Notes under the pieces: generated by a model
The model's database searches: none
Told to the model about the DNA's origin: nothing
The model's input: only the letters and a program-made list of their open reading frames with translations
Assembly (NCBI GenBank): GCA_015488325.1
Contig: WFOA01000010.1
Coordinates: forward strand, 15,945-79,944
DNA from: Acidimicrobiia bacterium
Lineage (GTDB): Bacteria; Actinomycetota; Acidimicrobiia; Spongiisociales; ZC4RG35
Reading direction: 5' to 3'
Length of the DNA stretch: 64,000 nucleotides
In this document: piece after piece, positions 6,436 to 52,247 of the stretch
Layout: every line of letters begins with the position of its first letter
Position numbering within the stretch: position 1 is the first letter of the stretch
Translations under genes and position numbers: made by a program

Positions 6436-8226
6436 GTGATCATCGCCAGTCCAGGGCTTCGCCGAAGCCTCTCCGTCCTCCTCGAACCGGGACGCCGCGC
6501 CCGGTGGGGGTGGCTGGTGGTGCTCGCCGCCGTCAACGCCGCCGTCGAAGCCCTCGGCGCCCTCCTCATCTTCTTCGCCGTCAACCGGGTCACCCAGAGT
6601 CCGTCGACGACCCCCCTCGACGCCTGGTTCCCGCCCGGTTCAGACCGGGCCACCATGATGGTCGTGGCTGCGGTGATCGGCGGCTTCTTCCTCGCCCGTG
6701 CCGTCTTCACCGTCGGCCGCACGTGGTTCGAGCACCAGGTGATCCAACACACCGCCGCCCGCACCGCCGACCGCCTGTTCCGCCGCTACCTGGCCACTCC
6801 CTACCGTGTCCATCTGCGTCGAAGCTCGCCCGAGCTGATCCGCAACGCCATCACGTCGGTCGACGAAGTGGCGATGCGGTTCCTCACCCCCCTGGTGAGT
6901 GTCAGCGGCGAGGCCGTCATCGTCGTCGTGATGGTGGCGGTCCTCGCCGTCACGGCACCGGTGGTCACCGTCGTCGCCGCAGGAGCGATCGGCGTCGTCG
7001 GTTTCGCCCTCCTCCGGTTCGTGCGGGGACGCCTCCGGCAGGTGGGACGGCTGTCCGAGCGTTCCCAGCAGCGGTCCTTCGCCGCCATCCAACACGGACT
7101 CGGGGACCTGCGGAACATCAAGGTCTACGGCCGGGAACGGTTCTTCGCCGCCATCTTTCAGACCGAACGTCTCGGGTTCGCCCGGGCCCGCTACGAGATG
7201 GCCACCCTGTCGGTGGTGCCCCGGGTGGGGATCGAGACCCTCGTGTTCCTGATGGTGGTGGGGTTCCTCGCCGTCGCCTCCGCCGACGCCGCCGCCGAAT
7301 CCCTGTCGGTCCTGGGGCTCTTCGCCTACGCGGCCCTGCGGATCATGCCGGGCGTCAACCGGATCATCCACGGCCTCAACCGGATCCGGTTCGCCACCGC
7401 GGCCGTCGACAACGTGGTCGCCGACCTGAGCGGACCCGAACCGTCGCTTCCTCCCCTTCGCAACCGGGAGGCACCCCTCGAATGGTCGGCCGTCGTCTTC
7501 GAAGACGTCTCCTTCCGCTACGACGACGACGGACCGGAGGTGCTCTCGGGGATCGACCTGACCCTCCGCAAGGGGTCGTCGACGGGGCTGGTCGGTCCTA
7601 CCGGTGCCGGGAAGTCGACCCTCCTCGACCTGATCCTCGGTCTGTTGGAGCCGACCGGCGGGACGATCACCCTCGATGGACGTCCCCTCACCGACGTCCT
7701 CGACCGGTGGCAGGCGATGATCGGTCTCGTCTCCCAGGACATCTTCCTCCTCGACGACACCATCCGCCGAAACGTCGCCTTCGGGATCCCCGACGACGAG
7801 ATCGACGACGACAAGGTATGGAGGGCCCTCCGCCTCGCCCAGCTCGCCGACTTCGTGGAGCAGACCGACCGGGGTCTCGACACCCCGGTGGGCGAACGCG
7901 GGGTGTCGCTGTCGGGGGGACAGCGTCAGCGGGTGGCGATCGCCCGGGCCCTCTACCACGACCCCGAGATCCTCGTCTTCGACGAGGCCACCTCTTCGCT
8001 CGACCCCGTCACCGAACGGGACCTCCTCGACGCCATCGACCAGCTCGGACGAGACCGGACCGTCGTCATGGTCGCCCACCGGCTCTCCACCGTCGAACGC
8101 TGCGACCGGATCGTCGTCGTCGACGGTGGCCGGATCGTCGCCGAAGGGGACTTCGGGGAGCTGACCCGGGACAGCGCCCTGTTCCGCCGCCTCTCCGCCC
8201 CTACGAGGCTGCCCGAACCGACCTGA
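6436..8226 (+). CDS. ABC transporter, fused permease/ATP-binding exporter (MsbA/ABCB-like)
   Basis: GTG start preceded by GGGAG. N-terminal multi-TM domain followed by Walker A (GPTGAGKST), ABC signature (LSGGQRQR) and Walker B (ILVFDEATSSLD). Confidence 0.9.
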   Translation: MIIASPGLRRSLSVLLEPGRRARWGWLVVLAAVNAAVEALGALLIFFAVNRVTQSPSTTPLDAWFPPGSDRATMMVVAAVIGGFFLARAVFTVGRTWFEHQVIQHTAARTADRLFRRYLATPYRVHLRRSSPELIRNAITSVDEVAMRFLTPLVSVSGEAVIVVVMVAVLAVTAPVVTVVAAGAIGVVGFALLRFVRGRLRQVGRLSERSQQRSFAAIQHGLGDLRNIKVYGRERFFAAIFQTERLGFARARYEMATLSVVPRVGIETLVFLMVVGFLAVASADAAAESLSVLGLFAYAALRIMPGVNRIIHGLNRIRFATAAVDNVVADLSGPEPSLPPLRNREAPLEWSAVVFEDVSFRYDDDGPEVLSGIDLTLRKGSSTGLVGPTGAGKSTLLDLILGLLEPTGGTITLDGRPLTDVLDRWQAMIGLVSQDIFLLDDTIRRNVAFGIPDDEIDDDKVWRALRLAQLADFVEQTDRGLDTPVGERGVSLSGGQRQRVAIARALYHDPEILVFDEATSSLDPVTERDLLDAIDQLGRDRTVVMVAHRLSTVERCDRIVVVDGGRIVAEGDFGELTRDSALFRRLSAPTRLPEPT

Positions 8227-42275: not shown

Positions 42276-43037
42276 GTGCGCACCGAGACCCCCCTCCTCC
42301 AGATCGAGAACCTCCACGCCGGGGTCGATGACGTCGAGATCCTCAAGGGCGTCGATCTCACGGTCGAACGCGGCCGCATCCACGTGCTGATGGGTCCCAA
42401 CGGCTCCGGCAAGTCCACCCTCGCCAACGTCCTCATGGGTCACCCCTCCTACGAGGTGACCGAAGGTCGCATCCTCTTCGACGGCGACGACGTCACCGAG
42501 ATGGCCCCGGACGAACGGGCACGGCGCGGCATGTTCCTCGCCTTCCAATACCCCGAAGCCATCCCCGGGGTCTCGGTGATCCAGTTCCTGCGCCAAGCCC
42601 TCTCCAACCGCCACGGCATCGACTACACGGTGCTGGAGCTGCGGCTCAAGGTGATGGACGCGATGAGAGAGCTGGGGATGGACTCCAGCTTCGCCGACCG
42701 CTACCTCAACGAGGGATTCAGCGGCGGTGAGCGGAAACGCAACGAGGTCCTGCAGATGGCGATCCTCGAGCCGACCCTCGCCATCTTGGACGAGACCGAC
42801 TCCGGTCTCGACATCGACGCCCTCAAGACCGTCGCCGAGGGGATCGACAAGCTCCGCCACCCGGACCGTGGTTTCCTCATCATCACCCACTACCAGCGGC
42901 TGTTGGACTACGTCACCCCCGACGACGTCCACGTCTTCATGGACGGCCGGGTCGTCGAGACCGGCGGCCCCGAGCTGGCGAAGCGACTCGAAGAGGAAGG
43001 GTACGAGGCCTTCCGCCGAACCGAGGTCCCCTCATGA
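42276..43037 (+). CDS. sufC: Fe-S cluster assembly ATPase SufC (copy 1)
   Basis: GPNGSGKST Walker A, LSGGERKR signature, ILDETDSGLD Walker B. Followed by sufS and sufU. Confidence 0.9.
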   Translation: MRTETPLLQIENLHAGVDDVEILKGVDLTVERGRIHVLMGPNGSGKSTLANVLMGHPSYEVTEGRILFDGDDVTEMAPDERARRGMFLAFQYPEAIPGVSVIQFLRQALSNRHGIDYTVLELRLKVMDAMRELGMDSSFADRYLNEGFSGGERKRNEVLQMAILEPTLAILDETDSGLDIDALKTVAEGIDKLRHPDRGFLIITHYQRLLDYVTPDDVHVFMDGRVVETGGPELAKRLEEEGYEAFRRTEVPS

Positions 43038-44263
43038 GCGGTCTCGAGCACCTCCGGGCAGATTTCCCGGTGCTCCAACGGGAGATCGGGGGCAAGCCGG
43101 TGCATTTCCTCGACTCCGCCGCCAGCTCCCAGAAGCCGACGAGCGTCCTGGAAGCGATGGACGACTTCTACCGGTGCTGTTACGCCAACGTCCACCGGGG
43201 GGCGTACGCCCTGTCGGTGGAGTCGACCGAACGGTACGAGGCGGCCCGGAGCAGGGTCGCCTCGTTCATCAACGCCTCCGATCCGACCCAGGTGGCCTTC
43301 GCCCGAGGTGCCACCAGTGCGCTGAACCTCATCGCCCACGGCTGGGGTGGCGAACACCTCCGCCCCGGTGATCGGGTGCTGCTCACCGAGATGGAACACC
43401 ACGCCAACCTGGTGCCTTGGCAGATGGTCGCCGCCCGTACGGGAGCCCGCCTCGATTTCGTCCCCCTCACCGACGACTACCGGCTCGACCTGGAGGCGTT
43501 GGAGCAGAAGCTGGACGACGACGTGGCCGTCGTCGGCGTGACCGGGATGTCGAACGTCCTCGGCACCATCCCCCCGATCCCCCGGATCGCCGAGGCGGCC
43601 CGGACCGTCGGTGCTCTCCTGGTCGTGGACGGAGCCCAGCTCGTACCCCACCAACCCGTCGACGTCCAGACCCTCGGAGCCGACTTCCTCGTCTTCTCGG
43701 CCCACAAGATGCTGGGTCCGACCGGCATCGGGGCCCTGTGGGGTCGCCCCGAACGTCTCGAGGAGATGGAACCCTACGAAGGGGGCGGGGAGATGATCGC
43801 CGACGTCCAGCTCCACACCTCGACCTGGGCGGCGATCCCCCACCGTTTCGAGGCGGGGACACCGCCGATCGCCGAAGCCGTTGGTTTCGCCGCCGCGGTC
43901 GACTACCTCGACAAGGTGGGGATGGACCAGGTCGCCGCCCACGACGCCGACCTCACCGCCTACGCCCTCCAGCTCCTCGCCGAGATCCCCCACGTCACCG
44001 TGTACGGACCCGCCGACGTCGACGCCCGGGGAGGGGTGATCTCCTTCACGATGGCGGACGTCCACCCCCACGACCTGGCCACGATCCTCGACCAGCAGGG
44101 CGTGTCGGTGCGGGCGGGACATCACTGTGCCAAGCCCCTGATGCGCCGTCTCTGCGTGCCCGCCACCGCCCGGGCCTCCTTCTACGTGTACAACACCCGG
44201 ACCGACGTGGACGCCCTGGTCGAGGCCCTGGGGGTCGCATCTCGGATCTTCGGGGTCGGGTGA
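43034..44263 (+). CDS. sufS: cysteine desulfurase SufS
   Basis: Class-V aminotransferase. PLP-lysine motif (FSAHKMLGPTGIGAL). Active-site Cys loop (RAGHHCAKPL). Overlaps the sufC stop. Confidence 0.9.
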   Translation: MSGLEHLRADFPVLQREIGGKPVHFLDSAASSQKPTSVLEAMDDFYRCCYANVHRGAYALSVESTERYEAARSRVASFINASDPTQVAFARGATSALNLIAHGWGGEHLRPGDRVLLTEMEHHANLVPWQMVAARTGARLDFVPLTDDYRLDLEALEQKLDDDVAVVGVTGMSNVLGTIPPIPRIAEAARTVGALLVVDGAQLVPHQPVDVQTLGADFLVFSAHKMLGPTGIGALWGRPERLEEMEPYEGGGEMIADVQLHTSTWAAIPHRFEAGTPPIAEAVGFAAAVDYLDKVGMDQVAAHDADLTAYALQLLAEIPHVTVYGPADVDARGGVISFTMADVHPHDLATILDQQGVSVRAGHHCAKPLMRRLCVPATARASFYVYNTRTDVDALVEALGVASRIFGVG

Positions 44264-44274
44264 GGGAGGCGGAG

Positions 44275-44730
44275 ATGTCACTCGAAGAGCTGTATCGAGA
44301 GGTCATCCTCGACCACTACCGCAACCCGCGTCATCGCAAACCCCTCGACCGGGCCGACGCCCACGCCGAAGGCGTCAACCCGCTGTGCGGCGACGAGGTG
44401 ACGGTCGAACTCGCCGTCACCGACGGGAGGATCAGCGACGTCGCCGCCATCGGCCAGGGATGTTCGATCAGCCAGTCCTCGGCTTCGATGATGACCGACG
44501 CGATCCTCGGCAAGACCGTCGAAGAGGTGCGGGACCTCATCCAACGGTTCAAGGCCATGATGGACATCGACCACGAAGCCGACCTGGGTCTCGACCCGGA
44601 TCGTCCGGGGGCGGTGTTGGGGGACCTGGAAGCCCTCCAGGGCGTGCGCCGCTACCCGGTCCGGATCAAGTGCGCCAACCTCCCCTGGACCACCCTCGCC
44701 CAGGCTCTCGACCAGCTCTCCGCCTCTTAG
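44275..44730 (+). CDS. sufU: SUF-type Fe-S assembly scaffold SufU/NifU-like
   Basis: ATG preceded by GGGAGG. MSLEELYREVILDHYRNPRH...NPLCGDEV...GQGCSISQSSASMM is the SufU signature with conserved cysteines. Absent from the ORF track as a separate ORF. Confidence 0.85.
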   Translation: MSLEELYREVILDHYRNPRHRKPLDRADAHAEGVNPLCGDEVTVELAVTDGRISDVAAIGQGCSISQSSASMMTDAILGKTVEEVRDLIQRFKAMMDIDHEADLGLDPDRPGAVLGDLEALQGVRRYPVRIKCANLPWTTLAQALDQLSAS

Positions 44731-44816
44731 GCTCTTCTTGACCTCCTGCTGATGCGCCCCTGAGTCGCATCCCGGCACGATGTCCACAGAACCGAGGGAT
44801 CAGTAGGAGGTCTCAC

Positions 44817-45692
44817 ATGGAACGAAAGATCTGGACCACGGCGGCGGCGCTCACCGTCGTTCTCGCCGTGACCGGCGTCGCCTGGGCAGGGCTGCCCCGC
44901 GCCGCCGAGACGAGCACCACCGTGACCGTGGAGAACGAGCTGGTGGCCCCGGCAGCCGACGCCGGCACCGTCACCCTCCGGAAAGTCGCCGCCGGCCTCG
45001 AGGTCGTGTCGGTGAGCCCGGCCGACGGCTGGGAGTACACCGTGAAACGTGCCGCCGGCCGGGAGGTCGAAGTCGACTTCCGAGCGATGGACGGGACGGT
45101 CGAGTTCGAGGCCGAGATCGACAACGGCCAGGTTCGCATCAAGGTGAAGGTCCGCGTGGACGCCGGTGCCTCCTCCACGACGACCGTCGATTCCACGTCC
45201 TCGACGGTGGACAGCACCTCCACCTCGGTGGCCGCCGGCCCCTCCACCACCGAGGCGGTGACGTCGACCACCATCGACGACAGCCCGTCCACCACGGTCG
45301 ACGATACGTCGCCGACCACCATCGACGACGACCGCACCACCTCGACCACGGTGTACGACGACGACGATGACGACGACCACACCACCTCGACCACGGTGTA
45401 CGACGACGATGACGACGACCGCACCACCTCGACCACGGTGGCGCAGGGCGATCCGGCCGACTTCGGCACCAAGGTCTACGACGTCGACGGCATCGGCACC
45501 GTCACCGTGGAACGGGACGCCGACGGCCTGACCCTCATCGCCGTCGTCTCCAACCCCGACTGGACGATCAACGTCGAGAAGGCCGGTCCGAAAGAGATCG
45601 AGATCGAGTTCAGGAACGGAGAGCTCGAGGTCAAGTTCGAAGCCGAGCTCGAGTACGGGGAGCTCCGGATCAAGATCGAGCGGGGTTCCTGA
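44817..45692 (+). CDS. secreted protein with two related ~60-aa beta-rich (PepSY-like) domains separated by an S/T/D-rich linker containing tandem repeats
   Basis: Signal peptide (AAALTVVLAVTGVAWA). N- and C-terminal domains are related (e.g. VEFEAEIDNGQVRIKVKV and LEVKFEAELEYGELRIKIE). Linker carries 45/42-bp in-frame tandem repeats. Confidence 0.75.
   Translation: MERKIWTTAAALTVVLAVTGVAWAGLPRAAETSTTVTVENELVAPAADAGTVTLRKVAAGLEVVSVSPADGWEYTVKRAAGREVEVDFRAMDGTVEFEAEIDNGQVRIKVKVRVDAGASSTTTVDSTSSTVDSTSTSVAAGPSTTEAVTSTTIDDSPSTTVDDTSPTTIDDDRTTSTTVYDDDDDDDHTTSTTVYDDDDDDRTTSTTVAQGDPADFGTKVYDVDGIGTVTVERDADGLTLIAVVSNPDWTINVEKAGPKEIEIEFRNGELEVKFEAELEYGELRIKIERGS
45331..45440 (+). repeat. in-frame tandem repeat (45-bp, 42-bp and a partial unit) encoding TTSTTVYDDDDDD(D)[HR]
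   Basis: accgcaccacctcgaccacggtgtacgacgacgacgatgacgacg is followed by accacaccacctcgaccacggtgtacgacgacgatgacgacg, then a partial third unit. The two full units differ by one GAC codon. Confidence 0.8.
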
Positions 45693-45696
45693 CCGG

Positions 45697-46974
45697 TCAA
45701 TCCTTCCCGAACACCACCCGGAGAACCGCCCCGCCCTCGGGGCGGTTCTCCGCGTCGAGGTGGCCGCCCGTCCGCGCGGCGGTACGGGCCACGATGTCGA
45801 GTCCGAGACCCGTCGACCCGGCCCCGCTCTCCCCCCGGCGCAGGGGATCGACCCCGTCGGGGAACCCGGGTCCCTCATCGGCGACTTCCAGGACGGCACC
45901 ACCGGCGCCTCTATCGACCTTCACCGTGAACCCGGTCCCCGGAGGGGTGTGGGCGAAGACGTTGCCGACGAGGGCGTCGACGGCGGCTGCGACGTCGCCC
46001 GGAGGGAGCGGCACCGGCGTGGGATCGTCGGTGATCTTCACCTCCAGGGCGCGGTCCTGGTCTTCGGCGGCGACCGCCCAGAAGGCGATCCGGTCTCGGA
46101 CCACCGTCCCCAGATCGCAGGAGGCGGGCCGGTCGTCGGGCCTGGACCGGGCCTCTTCGATGAGCAGGTCGACTTGGCGCTGGAGGCGATCGAGCTGGGC
46201 GAGGAGGGACTCCCGCTCGGGGGATGCTTCGAGCCGCTCGACGCGCAAGCGGAGGGCGGTGAGGGGGGTGCGAAGTCGATGGGAGAGGTCGGCGACCGAT
46301 TCCCGCTCGGCGGCGAGGAGGTCGTCCAACCGCCGTGCGAGCCAGTTGAACGACCGGGCGACCTCCTCGATCTCGACCGGACCTTCCAGGGGAACCCGAA
46401 CCTGCAGATCGCCGGCTCCGAGACGGCGGGCGGCCGTCGCCAGGCGAGTGACGGGACGAACGAGGGACGTTCCCAGTCGGTCGGCCACCAGGACGGCAGC
46501 GACGATCATCCCCAACCCGAGCAGCGCCAAGAACACCCAGGCGGTGGCCACACCCGACCGCAACTGGTCGTCGGTGACGAAGGCCGTGACCACGATCGGG
46601 CCTTCCCGGGTCACCACCGGGAGCGCCACCTGCCAGCCCCCGTCGACCTCGTCGGCCACCGCACGTTGCTCATCGGCGGCGAGGCGGGTCACCGCGCTGG
46701 GCAGGGCGGACCCGATCAACCCTCCGTCGGGGAGGATGACGCTCACTCCGGGAGGTAGGGGCCCGAGGAGGTCGGCGAGGACGTCGACGTCGAGGCGGTC
46801 CACCTGGGCGAGGGCGAGGGCGACGAGGCTCCCCACCTCCTGAATGTCCCGTTCAGCGGCGACCCGGGCTCGGGTCTCCGCCTGGTGGCGGACCAACAGG
46901 GCCAGGGGCACGGTGAAGGCGATGACGACCAGGGACGTCACGGCGGCGGAGACGAGGACGAATCGGCGTCTCAC
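45697..46974 (-). CDS. sensor histidine kinase (TM-HAMP-HisKA-HATPase)
   Basis: Two TM helices. HisKA H-box (LSHRLRTPLTAL). HATPase G-boxes (DEGPGFPDG, GSTGLGLDIVAR). GTG start overlaps the response-regulator stop (GTGA). Confidence 0.85.
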   Translation of the reverse strand: MRRRFVLVSAAVTSLVVIAFTVPLALLVRHQAETRARVAAERDIQEVGSLVALALAQVDRLDVDVLADLLGPLPPGVSVILPDGGLIGSALPSAVTRLAADEQRAVADEVDGGWQVALPVVTREGPIVVTAFVTDDQLRSGVATAWVFLALLGLGMIVAAVLVADRLGTSLVRPVTRLATAARRLGAGDLQVRVPLEGPVEIEEVARSFNWLARRLDDLLAAERESVADLSHRLRTPLTALRLRVERLEASPERESLLAQLDRLQRQVDLLIEEARSRPDDRPASCDLGTVVRDRIAFWAVAAEDQDRALEVKITDDPTPVPLPPGDVAAAVDALVGNVFAHTPPGTGFTVKVDRGAGGAVLEVADEGPGFPDGVDPLRRGESGAGSTGLGLDIVARTAARTGGHLDAENRPEGGAVLRVVFGKD

Positions 46975-47654
46975 GATTCGGGTTCGACCAGCTTCACCCC
47001 CACACCGTGAACGGTCCGCAGGTAGCGGGGCTGCTGCGCAGACTCGCCCAGTTTCTTGCGAAGCCACGACAGGTGCACGTCGACGGACCGCTCACTGCCG
47101 CCGTACGGCTCCCGCCAGACTTCGGCCATCAGCTCCCGCTTCGACACCACTTCGCCTGCACGTTCCGCCAGCACCCGCAACAGGTCGAACTCCTTGGGAC
47201 TGAGGTCCAGGGGTTCACCGTCGAGGGAGGCTTCCCGGGAGGACGGGTCCACCACCAGGCCGCCGATGACGATGGGTCCGTCCCGCCGACCCGACTCGGC
47301 CCGGCGAAGCACCGCCCGCACCCTCGCCTCGAGCTGGGCCACCGAGAAGGGCTTCACGAGGTAGTCGTCGGCGCCGGCGTCGAGGGTACGGACCACCGAC
47401 TCGTCCCCTTCCCGGGCGGTGATGACCACGACGGGCACCTGCGACACCGCTCGGATCATCCGGAGCAGCTCCGAGCCGTCGAGGTCGGGCAGGCCCAGGT
47501 CGAGGATCACCAGATCGGGCGACGATCCGACGACCTGGCGGAGACCCTCCATGGCGGTGGCCGCCGATTCGACGTCGTGACCCTGGCGGGCCAGCGTCTC
47601 GGCGACCAGGTGCCTGATCTCGAAGTCGTCCTCGACGACGATCACACGGGACAT
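46971..47654 (-). CDS. OmpR-family response regulator
   Basis: Receiver domain (RVIVVEDD...LVILDLGLPDLDG) and winged-helix output domain (VDVHLSWLRKKL). Confidence 0.9.
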   Translation of the reverse strand: MSRVIVVEDDFEIRHLVAETLARQGHDVESAATAMEGLRQVVGSSPDLVILDLGLPDLDGSELLRMIRAVSQVPVVVITAREGDESVVRTLDAGADDYLVKPFSVAQLEARVRAVLRRAESGRRDGPIVIGGLVVDPSSREASLDGEPLDLSPKEFDLLRVLAERAGEVVSKRELMAEVWREPYGGSERSVDVHLSWLRKKLGESAQQPRYLRTVHGVGVKLVEPES

Positions 47655-47695
47655 CGGCCCCGAGCATATCGGCCGTGCCACCCCGGAGATCGGAC

Positions 47696-47724
47696 CTTGA
47701 CGAAACCTTGACTACCCCTTGACT
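47696..47724. promoter_or_regulatory. three direct CCTTGAC repeats with exact 11-bp phasing in the divergent response-regulator/secreted-protein promoter region; candidate OmpR-family response-regulator binding site
   Basis: ccttgacgaaa / ccttgactacc / ccttgac start at 47696, 47707 and 47718. Each TTGAC also resembles a -35 hexamer. Confidence 0.55.
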
Positions 47725-47757
47725 TCCGAGTGCGCGGATCTCGGGGAGAATGACGGT

Positions 47758-48405
47758 ATGCGCCGGCTCGTACTCGTCGTCGCCTGGATGGGCGCCACCG
47801 TGATCGTCACCGCCACCGCCTGGGCGGTGGTCTCCGCGGTGGAGGACCGGGTCAGCGACCGGCCCCTCACCCCCCTCATCGCCACCACCTTGGCGGTCGA
47901 CGAGACCACGACCACCACCTTGCCTCCGGTGACGGACCCGTCGGCCGAGACCCCGCCGCCGGCGACCGGCGACGAACCGACCACGACCACGGTCGGAGCC
48001 GAGACCGACGACACGGTGGCCTCGACGGGAAACACCGGAGGGGGCACCGTCCCCACCACCGCCGCCCCGACCACCACCACGACCTTGGTGACCACCACGA
48101 CGACCGTCCCGACCACCACCACGACCGTCGCGACCACCACGACCACCTCGACGGAGCCCTCCGGCGAGTGGCAGACGAAGACGATCGTGACGCCGGGAGG
48201 CAGCCTCACCATCAAGCACCGCCCCGACGAAGTCGTCTTGACGTCGACGACTCCGGCCGCCGGCTTCGTGGTCGAGATCAAAAACGCCGGTCCACCCGAA
48301 GTGGATGTCGAGTTCGAGACGAACGACGACACCGTCAAGATCGACGTGCGGGTCCGCTACGAGAACGGCGTCCTCATCGAAGACATCGAAGAGGAGCGAA
48401 GCTGA
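47758..48405 (+). CDS. secreted/membrane-anchored Thr/Pro-rich protein with a C-terminal PepSY-like domain related to the domains of the 44817-45692 protein
   Basis: ATG preceded by GGGAGA. Signal/anchor sequence (LVLVVAWMGATVIVTATAWA). About 100 aa of T/P-rich low complexity. C-terminal domain (EVDVEFETNDDTVKIDVRVRYENGVLIEDIE). Confidence 0.7.
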   Translation: MRRLVLVVAWMGATVIVTATAWAVVSAVEDRVSDRPLTPLIATTLAVDETTTTTLPPVTDPSAETPPPATGDEPTTTTVGAETDDTVASTGNTGGGTVPTTAAPTTTTTLVTTTTTVPTTTTTVATTTTTSTEPSGEWQTKTIVTPGGSLTIKHRPDEVVLTSTTPAAGFVVEIKNAGPPEVDVEFETNDDTVKIDVRVRYENGVLIEDIEEERS

Positions 48406-48408
48406 ACC

Positions 48409-49800
48409 TCAGAGGATGCCACCCTCGGTCATCTTCTTGATGTCGAGGGCGGCGTCGACCTCTTCGGCGCTCATCAGCCCCTTCTCGAGGACCACCTCCC
48501 GCACGGTCCGCCCGCTGGCGAATGCCTCTTTCGCCACGGCGGCTCCGGCGTCGTAGCCGATGTGGGGGTTGAGGGCCGTTACCACGATGACGTTTTTCTC
48601 GACGAGTTCACGGGCCCGTTCTTCGTTCGCCTCGATCCCGGTGACACACTTCTCGGCCAGCACCCGCGACGCGTTGCCGAGGATCGTGATCGCCTGCAAC
48701 AGGTTGTGGGCGATCAACGGCATCATCACGTTGAGCTCGAAGTTGCCGTTGGCTCCCCCCCAGGTGATGGCGGCGTCGTTGCCCATCACCTGCGCCGCCA
48801 CCATCATCACCGCCTCGGGGATGACCGGGTTCACCTTGGCGGGCATGATCGACGAGCCGGGTTGGAGTGCCGGAAGCCGGATCTCGCCGATCCCGGTGAC
48901 CGGACCGCTCGACAGCCAGCGGAGGTCGTTGGCGATCTTGAACAGTGACGTGGCGACGGTCTTGAGGGTGCCGGCCGCCTGCACCGTGGCGTCCTTCGCC
49001 GCCTGCGCCTCGAAGTGGTTCGTGGCTTCCCGGAACGGGATCCCGGTCCGCTCGGAGATGACGTCGATCACCTTCGCGGCGAAGCCTTCCGGACAGTTGA
49101 TCCCGGTCCCTACGGCGGTTCCCCCGAGGGGGAGCTCCTCGAGTTCGGGGAGGACCTTCTCGACCCGTTCGATCCCCTTGCGGACCTGGGTGGCGTAGCC
49201 GGAGAACTCCTGGCCGAGGGTGACCGGCGTGGCGTCCATGAGGTGGGTCCGTCCCGACTTCACGACCCGTTCGAACTCCCGGGACTTCTCCTCCAAGGCG
49301 AGGGCCAGCGCCGACAGTCCCGGGATCAGCACTTCCCGCACCTCGGCGGCGGCGGCGACGTGGATCGCCGTGGGGATCACGTCGTTCGACGACTGACCGA
49401 AGTTGACGTGGTCGTTGGGATGTACGAGTTTGGACCCCAGGGCTCCACCCAGGACCTGCGAAGCGCGGTTGGCGATCACCTCGTTGGCGTTGGTGTTCGT
49501 CGACGTCCCCGATCCGGTCTGGAAGATGTCGACCGGGAAGTGCTCGTCGAAGTCGCCCCTCGCCACTTCGGCGGCGGCCTGCTCGATCGCCTTCGCCTTC
49601 TCGGCGTCGACGTACCCTTCGGGTCCTGCGACGGCGGCCACCGCCCCTTTGATGACGCCGAGGGCCCAGATGAACCGACGGGGGAAACGGATCCCCGAGA
49701 TCGGGAAGTTCTCGATCGCCCGTTGCGTCGAAGCTCCGTAGAGGGCGTCGGCCGGGACCCGGACCTCGCCCATCGAGTCTCTCTCGGTGCGGTACTCCAC
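48409..49800 (-). CDS. aspA: aspartate ammonia-lyase (class II fumarase/aspartase family)
   Basis: Signature [15 protein letters not shown] matches the aspartase form rather than the fumarase form (GSSIMPGKVNPTQ). 463 aa. Confidence 0.8.
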
Positions 49801-49873
49801 GATGGTGCTCCTTCGTCGACAGCTCCAGCGTACGCCCCGGCCGCCCCGGCCGCGACCGCTGAAAGTCCATCCG

Positions 49874-50674
49874 TCAGAAGTCGAAGGGAGTGTCGGTGAA
49901 GAAGTCCGACGGCCGGCGTTCCGACGGGGTGGGTTCGGGCTGGAGACCGAGACGCTCCCGCAGGCCTTCGTATCCTTCTGCCTCCAGCTCGTCGGCCAGC
50001 TCGGGTCCTCCCGAACACACGATCCTGCCGTCCATCATCACGTGGATCCGGTCGGCCCGCAGGTAGCGGAGGATGCGGGAGTAGTGGGTGATGAGCAGCA
50101 CCCCGAGGTCGGGGCCTCGCATCTCCTCCACGGCGGCCGCCACCTCCCGGACGGCGTCGATGTCGAGTCCGGAGTCGATCTCGTCGAGCAGCGCCGCCTT
50201 CGGACGGAGTACGGCCATCTGGAGGATCTCGGAACGCTTCTTCTCCCCGCCGGAGAGGTCGTCGTTGACCGACCGGTCCAAGAATTCGGTGGCGCCGAGG
50301 CGTTCGGCGAGCTCCCGGGCCCGGGTCAGTGTCGCCTCCGGGTCGGCTCCCCACTCTTCCGCCGCCTCTCGGAGCAGCTCGGACAGTTTCACCCCGGGGA
50401 TCTCCACGGGATACTGGAAGGCCTGCAGGAGCCCCAACCGGGCCCGCTCGTCCACCTCGAGGCCCAACACCTCCGTCCCGTCGAGGAGGGCGGATCCCGA
50501 GACCTCGTAGCCGTCTTTTCCGGTGAGCACATGACAGAGGGTCGACTTGCCCGAACCGTTCGGGCCCATCACGGCGTGGACCTCGCCGAAACCGATGTCG
50601 AGGTCCACGCCACGCAGGATCTCGACGGAACCAACCGAGGCGTGGAGGTCGCGGATCTGGAGGGCGAGGCTCAT
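49874..50674 (-). CDS. sufC: Fe-S cluster assembly ATPase SufC (copy 2)
   Basis: Starts [31 protein letters not shown] and [10 protein letters not shown] motifs. ATGA overlap with the Rieske gene stop. Confidence 0.85.
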
Positions 50675-50985
50675 GACGGCTCCACGGACAGGTAGACGTC
50701 GCCGTCTTCCACCTTCACCCGGTAGGTGGGCACCGGCCGGGTCGCCGGAAGGGTGAGGGGTTTGCCCGTCTTGAGGTCGAAGACGGCGCCATGGCGGGGA
50801 CATTCGATCTCGTGGTCCACGACCTCTCCTTCGGCGAGGGACGCCTCGGCGTGACTGCATCGATCACCGAGGGCGTAGACGTCGTCTCCGACCCGGACGA
50901 GGGCGATCCGGTGCCCGGGAAGGTCGACCCGCACCGGGGCGCCCGGGACCAGATCGTCCATCGACGTCACCTTCACCCAGCTCAT
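50671..50985 (-). CDS. Rieske [2Fe-2S] domain protein (suf-operon-associated ferredoxin subunit)
   Basis: CSH...CPRHG Rieske motifs. Located between sufD and sufC, as in actinobacterial suf operons. Confidence 0.85.
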   Translation of the reverse strand: MSWVKVTSMDDLVPGAPVRVDLPGHRIALVRVGDDVYALGDRCSHAEASLAEGEVVDHEIECPRHGAVFDLKTGKPLTLPATRPVPTYRVKVEDGDVYLSVEPS

Positions 50986-52247
50986 CCCAACCTCCCTGCG
51001 GCCTGAGCGGCACCGAACCGTTCGTCCACTTCCCGCCGGAGCGGATCGGCCATGGCGTCCGACGGGAGGCGTTCGATGACCTCTTCGAAGAACCCGTGCA
51101 CCAGGAGGCGTTCGGCCCGGTCACGGGAGAGACCCCGGCTCATCAGGTAGTACAGATGTTCGGCGTCGAGGGGCCCGACGCTGGAGCCGTGCCCGCAGAC
51201 CACGTCGTCACAGAGGATCTCGAGGTTGGGGACCGAATGGGCCTTCGCCCCGTCGGAGAGGACCAGGTTGCGGTTGGTCTCGAACGCCGATGTGCGGGCG
51301 GCGGTGGGAGCGATCCGCAACAGACCGGTGAACACCGACTGGGCGTGATCTTCCACCGCGCCTTTGAGGAGGACGTCGGAGCTGGTGGAGCGGCCCACGT
51401 GGTCGATCACCATCCGGTAGTCGAGGACCTGGGTGCCTTCACCGAAGTACAACCCGACGACCTCGGCGGAGCTACCGTCGCCTTCGAGGCGCACCCCGAG
51501 GTCGAGCCGGGCCGTCGACCCCCCGAGGCCCGCCTCCCCGACCCGCAGGGTGGCGTCCCGGGCGAGTCGAGCCCGCTCGTGGGCGACGAGGACGGTGGCG
51601 TCGCCGAGGAGCTGGACGGTGGTGAACCGCAGCCGGGCCCCCTGGGCGACGTCGAGTCCGAGCAGCGGAGCGACGACGGCGTCGACGCCGTCGGGGCTGC
51701 GGTAGACGACCACCACGTTCGCCTCGGCGTTCTCACCGACCTCCACCGTCACTTCCGGGAACGAGATCGTGCCGCCGGCGGTGGCTTGGAGTTCGACCAC
51801 CACCGGACGGACCTCGACCGCACCGGCCGGGACGCCGACGAACACCCCGTCGCCGCCGAAGGCGAACCCGGCGGCGGCGAACTTGTCCACCGAGGGGTCG
51901 ACGAGGGATGGGACCGCTCCCCGCTCCCACCGTTCCGCCCCCCGGCCGATTCGCACGGTGTCCCCACCGTCCACCGACACCGTGTACCCGTCCACGACCA
52001 CGACCCGGCCGGCAGCGTCGCCGATCGCCGACACGAAGGGGCCGGGCTTCAGCGGTTGTCCGGGTTCTTCGGGGAGGGCGAGGGTGTCGAAGTCGACGTC
52101 GAGGTCGACGTATCTCCAGGCCTCGTCGGTGTCGGACGGAGGGGGGATCTCGCGGTAGAGGTCGAAGGCTTCGAGTCGCCGCCGAGCGAGGGGCTCGGGG
52201 GCGTCGCGATTCAGGACCTCGACGGTCGTGGCGTTCAGGGCGAGCAC
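50982..52247 (-). CDS. sufD: Fe-S cluster assembly protein SufD
   Basis: 421-aa SufB/SufD-family protein with the C-terminal LYYLMSRGL motif. Its size and position before Rieske-sufC indicate SufD. Confidence 0.8.
   Translation of the reverse strand: MLALNATTVEVLNRDAPEPLARRRLEAFDLYREIPPPSDTDEAWRYVDLDVDFDTLALPEEPGQPLKPGPFVSAIGDAAGRVVVVDGYTVSVDGGDTVRIGRGAERWERGAVPSLVDPSVDKFAAAGFAFGGDGVFVGVPAGAVEVRPVVVELQATAGGTISFPEVTVEVGENAEANVVVVYRSPDGVDAVVAPLLGLDVAQGARLRFTTVQLLGDATVLVAHERARLARDATLRVGEAGLGGSTARLDLGVRLEGDGSSAEVVGLYFGEGTQVLDYRMVIDHVGRSTSSDVLLKGAVEDHAQSVFTGLLRIAPTAARTSAFETNRNLVLSDGAKAHSVPNLEILCDDVVCGHGSSVGPLDAEHLYYLMSRGLSRDRAERLLVHGFFEEVIERLPSDAMADPLRREVDERFGAAQAAGRLG

Follow-up and report, generated by a model that had tools for sequence, protein, structure and literature searches.

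A probable autoregulated cell-envelope two-component module with candidate 11-bp-phased operators and exported beta-domain neighbours in an Acidimicrobiia bacterium

A 64-kilobase (kb) stretch of contig WFOA01000010.1 from an Acidimicrobiia bacterium (64,000 nucleotides (nt), hereafter the window; all coordinates are positions in it) carries a four-gene locus that we read, with good confidence, as an autoregulated cell-envelope two-component module with neighbouring exported target or accessory genes. Open reading frame (ORF) listing and profile scans identify these genes as protein A (44817-45692, + strand, 291 amino acids (aa)); a sensor histidine kinase with HAMP, HisKA, and HATPase_c domains (45697-46974, − strand, 425 aa); an OmpR/PhoB-family response regulator with Response_reg and Trans_reg_C domains (46971-47654, − strand, 227 aa), whose stop overlaps the kinase start by 4 nt; and protein B (47758-48405, + strand, 215 aa). 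Proteins A and B belong to no Pfam family. An initial annotation of this DNA had described the same gene content, an OmpR-type regulator and its kinase flanked by a pair of exported proteins with a beta-rich domain in common, and had seen in it a self-contained module. That idea now stands on firmer ground, since a second array related to the one it had noticed lies upstream of protein A.

The regulator and protein B genes diverge from an intergenic gap of 103 base pairs (bp; 47655-47757) that contains gACCTTGACgaaACCTTGACtacCCCTTGACttc. Here the heptamer CCTTGAC occurs three times at an exact 11-bp period: 47695-47701, 47706-47712, and 47717-47723. (The initial annotation gave the right count and spacing, but its coordinates were one base too high.) The complete array (47694-47726, + strand) comprises three direct-repeat units, ACCTTGACGAA, ACCTTGACTAC, and CCCTTGACTTC, and Tandem Repeats Finder independently called a repeat of 11-bp period at 47694-47724. 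The window holds seven copies of CCTTGAC on its two strands, against 6.7 expected, and three of the seven are in this array; the total is at chance level, but the clustering is not. Indeed, the pattern CTTGAS-n5-CTTGAS, with at most one mismatch allowed, matches only at this array in the window (two overlapping matches, 0.42 expected). The spacing of about 11 bp, one helical turn, is that of an OmpR/PhoB-type operator, and the repeats are likely to be the operator of the adjacent regulator.

Conservation of the array was assessed in related loci, 56 of which were collected by a regulator search in genomes and a B-type alignment search in metagenomes (loci are numbered from L001 upward, and proteins of the beta-domain family from P0001 upward). 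These relatives carry the labels Acidimicrobiaceae or Actinomycetota. An orthologous regulator-kinase pair is divergent from a B-type gene in all 38 loci with enough upstream sequence, the regulators being 52-96% identical. The best three-unit CTTGAS array, with a maximum score of 18, was then determined in 36 distinct orthologous intergenic regions. At a period of 11 bp, 23 of these regions score at least 17 and 30 score at least 15. At periods of 8-10 and 12-14 bp no region of the 36 reaches 17; nor does any of 7,200 shuffles, 0.06% of which reach 15. The consensus across orthologues is GCCTTGAGGAA-ACCTTGACnnn-nnnTTGAS. Loss of the repeats from orthologous gaps had been named at the outset as a result that would count against the proposal; because they are conserved there, and at period 11 only, it survives that check.

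Toward each of the two divergent genes, a −10-like hexamer lies just ahead of the start codon. For protein B this is GAGAAT (47746-47751, + strand), 6 nt before the ATG; for the regulator it is TATGCT, of the form TAnnnT (47663-47668, − strand), 8 nt before the ATG. The arrangement recurs in the array-bearing loci. In 29 of 30, an nAnnnT hexamer, mostly GACAAT or GAGAAT, is found 51-52 bp past the array start and precedes the ATG or GTG of the B-type gene by 6-7 nt. A TAnnnT hexamer stands 6-9 nt before the regulator start codon in 30 of 30, and the distance from array start to regulator start is 36-40 bp in most loci. From these fixed spacings, leaderless transcripts are predicted in both directions: the protein B transcript is probably leaderless, and the regulator-kinase transcript probably leaderless or near-leaderless. 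Leaderless transcripts are common in Actinobacteria. Relative to B, the centres of the array units fall near −38, −49, and −60; relative to the regulator, they fall near −43, −54, and −65.

The B and regulator promoters thus contain no usable −35 element, because the nearest TTGAC is 20-21 bp from the B −10-like hexamer and a consensus scan of 44600-48500 found no sigma-70-type −35/−10 pair. The same facts bear on a rival explanation, in which the TTGAC repeats are overlapping −35 elements of ordinary housekeeping-sigma promoters and have nothing to do with the regulator. Each unit does hold TTGAC, which supplies five of the six positions of TTGACA. Yet the distance from the last TTGAC to the conserved −10-like hexamer falls outside the 16-18 bp range; orthologues keep CTTGAG, CTTGAT, and CCTGAG, which make poorer −35 elements, and keep with them the preceding C and the strict 11-bp phase; and the same phased array appears again upstream of protein A. 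We consider this explanation very improbable. A conserved array next to −35-less promoters is instead the arrangement of an OmpR/PhoB-type operator: activators of this family sit as tandem head-to-tail dimers on direct repeats of about 11 bp, where they overlap the −35 position and substitute for the −35/sigma region 4 contact (PMC9019756; PMC11825685).

The array upstream of protein A goes beyond the initial annotation. From the B-promoter arrays of 29 orthologous loci, the window being excluded, we derived a 33-bp weight matrix and scanned it over both strands of the window (128,000 positions). The known array at 47694 ranked first, with 36.1 bits, and a site at 44724 ranked second, with 18.4 bits; the next unrelated match in the window scored 5.5 bits, against a background mean of −47.5 (standard deviation 11.1). 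The new site (44724-44767, + strand) is a candidate second operator with four 11-bp-phased units: CTCTTAGGCTC, TTCTTGACCTC, CTGCTGATGCG, and CCCCTGAGTCG. The −10-like hexamer CACGAT (44776-44781, + strand), as read from the sequence, follows at +52 from the array start, the same offset as in the B promoter; the predicted transcription start of protein A is near 44788, and a Shine-Dalgarno element, AGGAGG, occupies 44805-44810 before the ATG.

This second array is conserved in orthologues. In L083, L084, L094, L100, L108, L110, L123, and L003, A-type genes are preceded at a distance of 76-87 bp by arrays of three to four units, and an equivalent array is also present upstream of an A-type gene in L002. 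Over 215 kb of orthologous loci, matches of at least 12 bits fell at the B-regulator gap or, where the sequence continues past the kinase, at a second site there, and each second site that was checked precedes either an A-type gene or an acidic paralogue with a signal peptide. (Among 15 loci whose sequence extends far enough, about 11 have an A-type gene after the kinase.) Every array is oriented like the A or B gene that it precedes. With the A-upstream array both matched and conserved, all three transcription units, A, B, and regulator-kinase, appear to share one operator type.

The acidic paralogues merit a description of their own. They are encoded at L100 935-1432 (+ strand), L113 1013-1420 (+ strand), and L002 5952-6455 (− strand), and have the same signal peptide as protein A (M-x-RK…VGVAWAS) without the beta-domain. 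Their bodies are built of Asp/Gly/Ser/His-rich repeats, for example DDSGSDDKGGDRDD and DDSGHDDDDDHGG, whose composition may reflect cation binding. Each has its own 11-bp-phased array upstream, with matrix matches at L100 848, L113 925, and L002 6508.

The regulator matches PF00072 (E = 1.1e-27, residues 4-113) and PF00486 (E = 2.6e-25, residues 146-221), as an OmpR/PhoB-family protein should, and its closest solved relatives are KdpE, PrrA, PhoP, RegX3, and MtrA (E = 1e-38 to 1e-44). The kinase contains HAMP (E = 4.4e-14), HisKA (E = 3.6e-8), and HATPase_c (E = 7.9e-12) domains, together with two hydrophobic segments, starting near residues 3-12 and 140-154, around a loop of ~120 aa; this is the architecture of a membrane sensor kinase of the HisKA class. 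Identity with CseBC, MtrAB, or PhoPR was considered and rejected, since scores stay under the NCBIfam equivalog cut-off of every named system, among them, for the regulator, CseB 181.5 (cut-off 350), MtrA 180.2 (300), and PhoB 178.8 (296); for the kinase, EnvZ 94.7 (415) and MtrB 67.2 (450). By these scores the two-component system falls under no established name, and a literature search found no description of it or of the domain shared by A and B.

What connects this regulator to the arrays, besides adjacency, is that its DNA-reading residues change along with the repeat motif. The recognition helix reads ...HLSWLR... where the units are CTTGAS, and ...HLSSLR... or ...HLSELR... in clades whose units are CCTGAG, CTTGAG, or GCTGAG. 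In a clade with the gap motif GTTTAGCC-n3-GTTAACC, still with an 11-bp period, the wing is TRRG rather than TVHG. Specifically, in L128, L131, and L135 (regulator 52-58% identical) a two-unit GTTwAsCC-n3-GTTAACC, 11 bp apart, replaces CTTGAS, and TRRG was read in the full-length regulators of L128 and L135. The relationship is correlative.

It nonetheless helps to weigh a second alternative: that the arrays are operators for another transcription factor encoded elsewhere, for example of the OmpR family or of the Streptomyces antibiotic regulatory protein (SARP) type, with the adjacent regulator acting on other targets. Many actinobacterial activators, PhoP, GlnR, and AfsR among them, read 11-bp direct repeats. 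The arrays, however, stay with the module through different genomic neighbourhoods (fumC or suf neighbours are present in only some loci). In 30 of 36 loci they also lie where the regulator itself has its promoter, and the motif changes together with the regulator's recognition helix and wing. Control by another factor is therefore unlikely in our estimation.

Together, these features suggest a mechanism for the autoregulated module. The kinase, with two membrane spans around an extracytoplasmic loop, would sense an envelope or extracellular cue and phosphorylate the regulator. Phosphorylated regulator would then bind the 11-bp-phased CTTGAS units head-to-tail, one DNA-binding domain to each unit. 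The array at 47694-47726 would serve two back-to-back −35-less promoters, those of protein B and of the regulator-kinase operon, both probably leaderless; the array at 44724-44767, placed at the same offset from a −10-like hexamer, would serve protein A. At these promoters the bound regulator most likely stands in for the absent −35 contact. It would thereby switch on A and B, acting as an activator rather than a repressor, and modulate its own operon.

Proteins A and B are related to one another through the beta-domain. BLASTP aligns them over about 55-60 residues (E = 4e-6 and 4e-5), and the family profile matches the window at exactly three places, with E = 1e-21 to 1e-28: 44925-45164, 45456-45689, and 48163-48402. 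The initial annotation had already counted two domains for A and, beyond a Thr/Pro-rich stalk, a single one for B, which the profile bears out. Protein A comprises a signal peptide (…VAWA|G), beta-domain 1 (44925-45164), a linker, and beta-domain 2 (45456-45689). Protein B comprises an N-terminal membrane anchor, the stalk, and a C-terminal beta-domain (48163-48402); its conserved juxtamembrane motif, …AVEDRVSDRP, corresponds to WQIVSAADxxVSDRP in the homologue consensus. Each protein has a single N-terminal hydrophobic segment, accompanied in A by the AWA|G signal-peptidase motif. To judge from these features, A is presumably secreted and B membrane-anchored.

The linkers are encoded by in-frame tandem repeats (45324-45440 and 48053-48147). 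The Thr/Ser/Asp-rich linker of A holds a 42-bp tandem repeat at 45324-45440, in 2.7 copies, encoding TTSTTVYDDDDDD; the Thr/Pro stalk of B (48053-48147) has tandem units of 21 and 42 bp. In size, the A linker seemed to differ between the window and L001, an ENA scaffold that is nearly identical to it, but a variable-number repeat was rejected: L001 has a run of N at about 7885-7984, equivalent to about 45379 of the window. The run of N also explains why the ORFs called there are no more than a fragment of 99 aa (P0001) and a spurious one in antisense.

Which family does the beta-domain belong to? The initial annotation had called A and B PepSY-like, a label that must be dropped. A Pfam scan of both proteins found no significant family match, and none to PepSY at E <= 1. 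Run against 39 family members, the PepSY models gave noise-level scores: one match for PepSY (E = 0.088), two for PepSY_2 (E = 0.12), and one for PepSY_MTB (E = 0.76). The fold of PepSY (PF03413, PF13670) is alpha+beta, with a helix packed on a small beta-sheet. The AlphaFold2 model of the B domain, a confident one built from a 42-sequence alignment (mean predicted local distance difference test score 91.9, predicted template-modelling score 0.77), instead shows seven consecutive beta strands and no helix. PepSY identity was rejected on both grounds, profile scores at E about 0.1 and an all-beta, helix-free predicted fold. Foldseek of the same model against the PDB found no significant match (best E = 0.14); the weak top matches, among them LolA, lipocalins, and designed curved sheets, have the form of a curved sheet or half-barrel.

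The one signal from the profile libraries comes from amphi-Trp (NCBIfam TIGR04354), which matches protein A with 20 bits (E = 6.5e-4, profile positions 15-64 of 67; cut-off 31 bits) and gives weak sub-threshold matches in 8 of the 39 family members. Like the domain studied here, amphi-Trp is short (about 65 aa), and its alternating charged and hydrophobic strands surround a Trp that is conserved. However, every score in the family lies below the 31-bit cut-off, and the similarity may consist only of a shared alternating Glu/hydrophobic pattern.

The extent of the family became apparent only by exhaustive search. Word-indexed protein searches gave few relatives (2 and 41 matches), whereas an exhaustive profile search of 1.84 billion cluster representatives revealed 1,943 proteins at E <= 1e-3, of which 390 are at E <= 1e-10. 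Wherever a match carries a source name, that name is "hypothetical protein", and precomputed Pfam domains are absent throughout. Family proteins contain one to five copies of the domain, and four classes can be recognised: the B type, with anchor, stalk, and one domain; the A type, with a signal peptide, one to three domains, and often Asp/His/Gly-rich tails; small lipoproteins, with Cys residues either side of the domain; and a form that has two domains but no signal peptide. The residues that hardly vary are Gly, Pro, Phe, Val, and Trp, indicating a scaffolding or binding role and not an enzymatic one.

Two groups of matches deserve comment. In the lipoprotein subclass (P0154-P0174), Cys residues just before and just after the domain (C…VCD) suggest a disulfide clamp. 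Among the contexts of this subclass (L136-L138), one member is found by genes for a glycosyltransferase and other membrane proteins, and another near a gene for an extracytoplasmic function (ECF) sigma factor, followed by an fn3-domain gene. Separately, two giant Calx-beta repeat proteins, P0012 and P0054 (2,177 and 2,830 aa), scored highly but were left out of the family. Their 13-17 partial matches cover only profile positions about 20-56, and probably reflect a shared strand pattern rather than family membership.

What A and B do is harder to settle than what they are. They may be output genes only, encoding structural or cation-binding envelope proteins that are produced when needed and take no part in perceiving the signal, so that the locus would be a plain two-component system with local targets. 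This is quite possible, and we give it somewhat less than even weight. Members with domains of the same family occur away from two-component systems, the conserved Gly, Pro, Phe, Val, and Trp are typical of a scaffold, and A-type genes are dispensable in some loci, where domain-less acidic paralogues can replace them. A pure output role fits protein B less well: a B-type gene adjoins the regulator-kinase pair in every locus with enough sequence, even where operator and intergenic region have both changed completely, a conserved adjacency that resembles that of the accessory partners CpxP and HbpS. B is a fixed partner of the two-component system across the lineage, and a feedback on the kinase, like that exerted by CpxP on CpxA, is probable.

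A more elaborate version makes A and B co-sensors as well. In it, the shared beta-domain would dock on the kinase loop, or the two proteins on each other through a hydrophobic sheet face, to form a four-component positive-feedback unit, with the co-regulated Asp/His/Gly-rich proteins engaged in divalent-cation sensing or buffering at the cell surface. We regard this version as doubtful, if conceivable. The link to divalent cations is speculation, prompted by the acidic, His-containing tails of the co-regulated secreted proteins.

Several observations weigh against the autoregulated module as drawn here. An odd count of three units sits awkwardly with binding as dimers, and the array orientation is opposite to that of the regulator promoter, on which its effect could be activation, repression, or none. 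The covariation of helix and motif comes from few related clades, which are not phylogenetically independent. In Streptomyces and Lentzea, a B-type gene still adjoins the regulator (54-57% identical), but the gap has shrunk to about 0-30 bp in Lentzea and to less than 100 bp in Streptomyces, and no CTTGAS repeats are found in either; the operator is therefore lineage-specific. Finally, no two-component system was found beside distant members of the beta-domain family at the three loci checked.

The surroundings of the module are as follows. Its outer genes form convergent pairs that almost abut: the stops of protein A and the kinase are 4 nt apart (45693-45696), and those of protein B and the class II fumarase gene fumC are 3 nt apart (48406-48408). 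No intrinsic terminator-like site was found between the genes of either pair. Two blocks of Fe-S cluster assembly genes bracket the module (42276-44730, + strand, and 48409-52247, − strand); one is sufC-sufS-sufU, and the other includes sufD and genes for a Rieske protein and for another SufC-like ATPase. In 10 other loci, too, the B-type gene is followed by fumC, whereas suf neighbours recur only in the closest relatives. An Rfam scan of 44500-48600 gave only three chance-level matches, far below the gathering scores.

These results do not overturn current understanding. It is well supported that the locus is of a known kind, an autoregulated two-component system with neighbouring extracytoplasmic target or accessory genes; an undescribed but widespread beta-domain family comes with it. 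The value lies in an entry point for envelope sensing in Acidimicrobiia-like bacteria and in the annotation of an unnamed domain. For an uncultured actinobacterial lineage there is now a testable regulon prediction: the CTTGAS consensus in 11-bp phase, and three predicted promoters, two of them probably leaderless. The changes in recognition helix and wing, set against those in the operator, offer a natural covariation series. Moreover, a widespread exported beta-domain family without a Pfam model has been delimited (about 1,900 clusters at 50% identity), and one of its subfamilies is an obligate neighbour of this two-component system.

The layout most resembles that of cpxP-cpxRA. In the Cpx system of E. 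coli and its relatives, the extracytoplasmic CpxP is encoded divergently, is a top target of the regulator through direct-repeat boxes, and inhibits the kinase (PMC6737893). The module described here has the same plan: an operon for an OmpR-family regulator and its kinase, a divergent gene for an extracytoplasmic protein, and candidate regulator boxes in the shared gap. The proteins themselves differ. CpxP is an all-helical protein of the Gram-negative periplasm, whereas protein B is anchored in the membrane and carries its all-beta domain on a Thr/Pro stalk; the two are unrelated in sequence, and here a second related secreted protein is present on the other flank.

The arrays themselves invite comparison with PHO boxes, in which 11-bp direct-repeat units, each with a 6-8 bp conserved core and a spacer, form arrays of two to six (PMC9019756; PMC11825685). 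Common to these boxes, as read by PhoP of S. coelicolor and M. tuberculosis or by E. coli PhoB/PhoP, and to the arrays described here are the 11-bp units and, as predictions in our case, the tandem head-to-tail DNA-binding domains and the overlap or replacement of the −35 element. In contrast, the core here is CTTGAS rather than GTTCACC or TCACAGC; the B promoter has three conserved units and the A promoter four; the regulator does not reach the PhoB and PhoP equivalog cut-offs; and the regulon as known, with two arrays in 64 kb, is a local rather than a global one.

Among actinobacterial systems, CseA-CseBC and LpqB-MtrAB each link an exported protein genetically to a kinase-regulator pair, whose kinase that protein can modulate. 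In HbpS-SenS-SenR, which the present layout also resembles, exported HbpS is likewise genetically linked to its kinase-regulator pair and able to modulate the kinase (PMC4991794). All three share with the present module an actinobacterial kinase-regulator pair and a genetically linked exported protein. A modulating role for A or B would be an extrapolation from such partners, and the accessory proteins of these systems are unrelated to A and B in sequence and fold.

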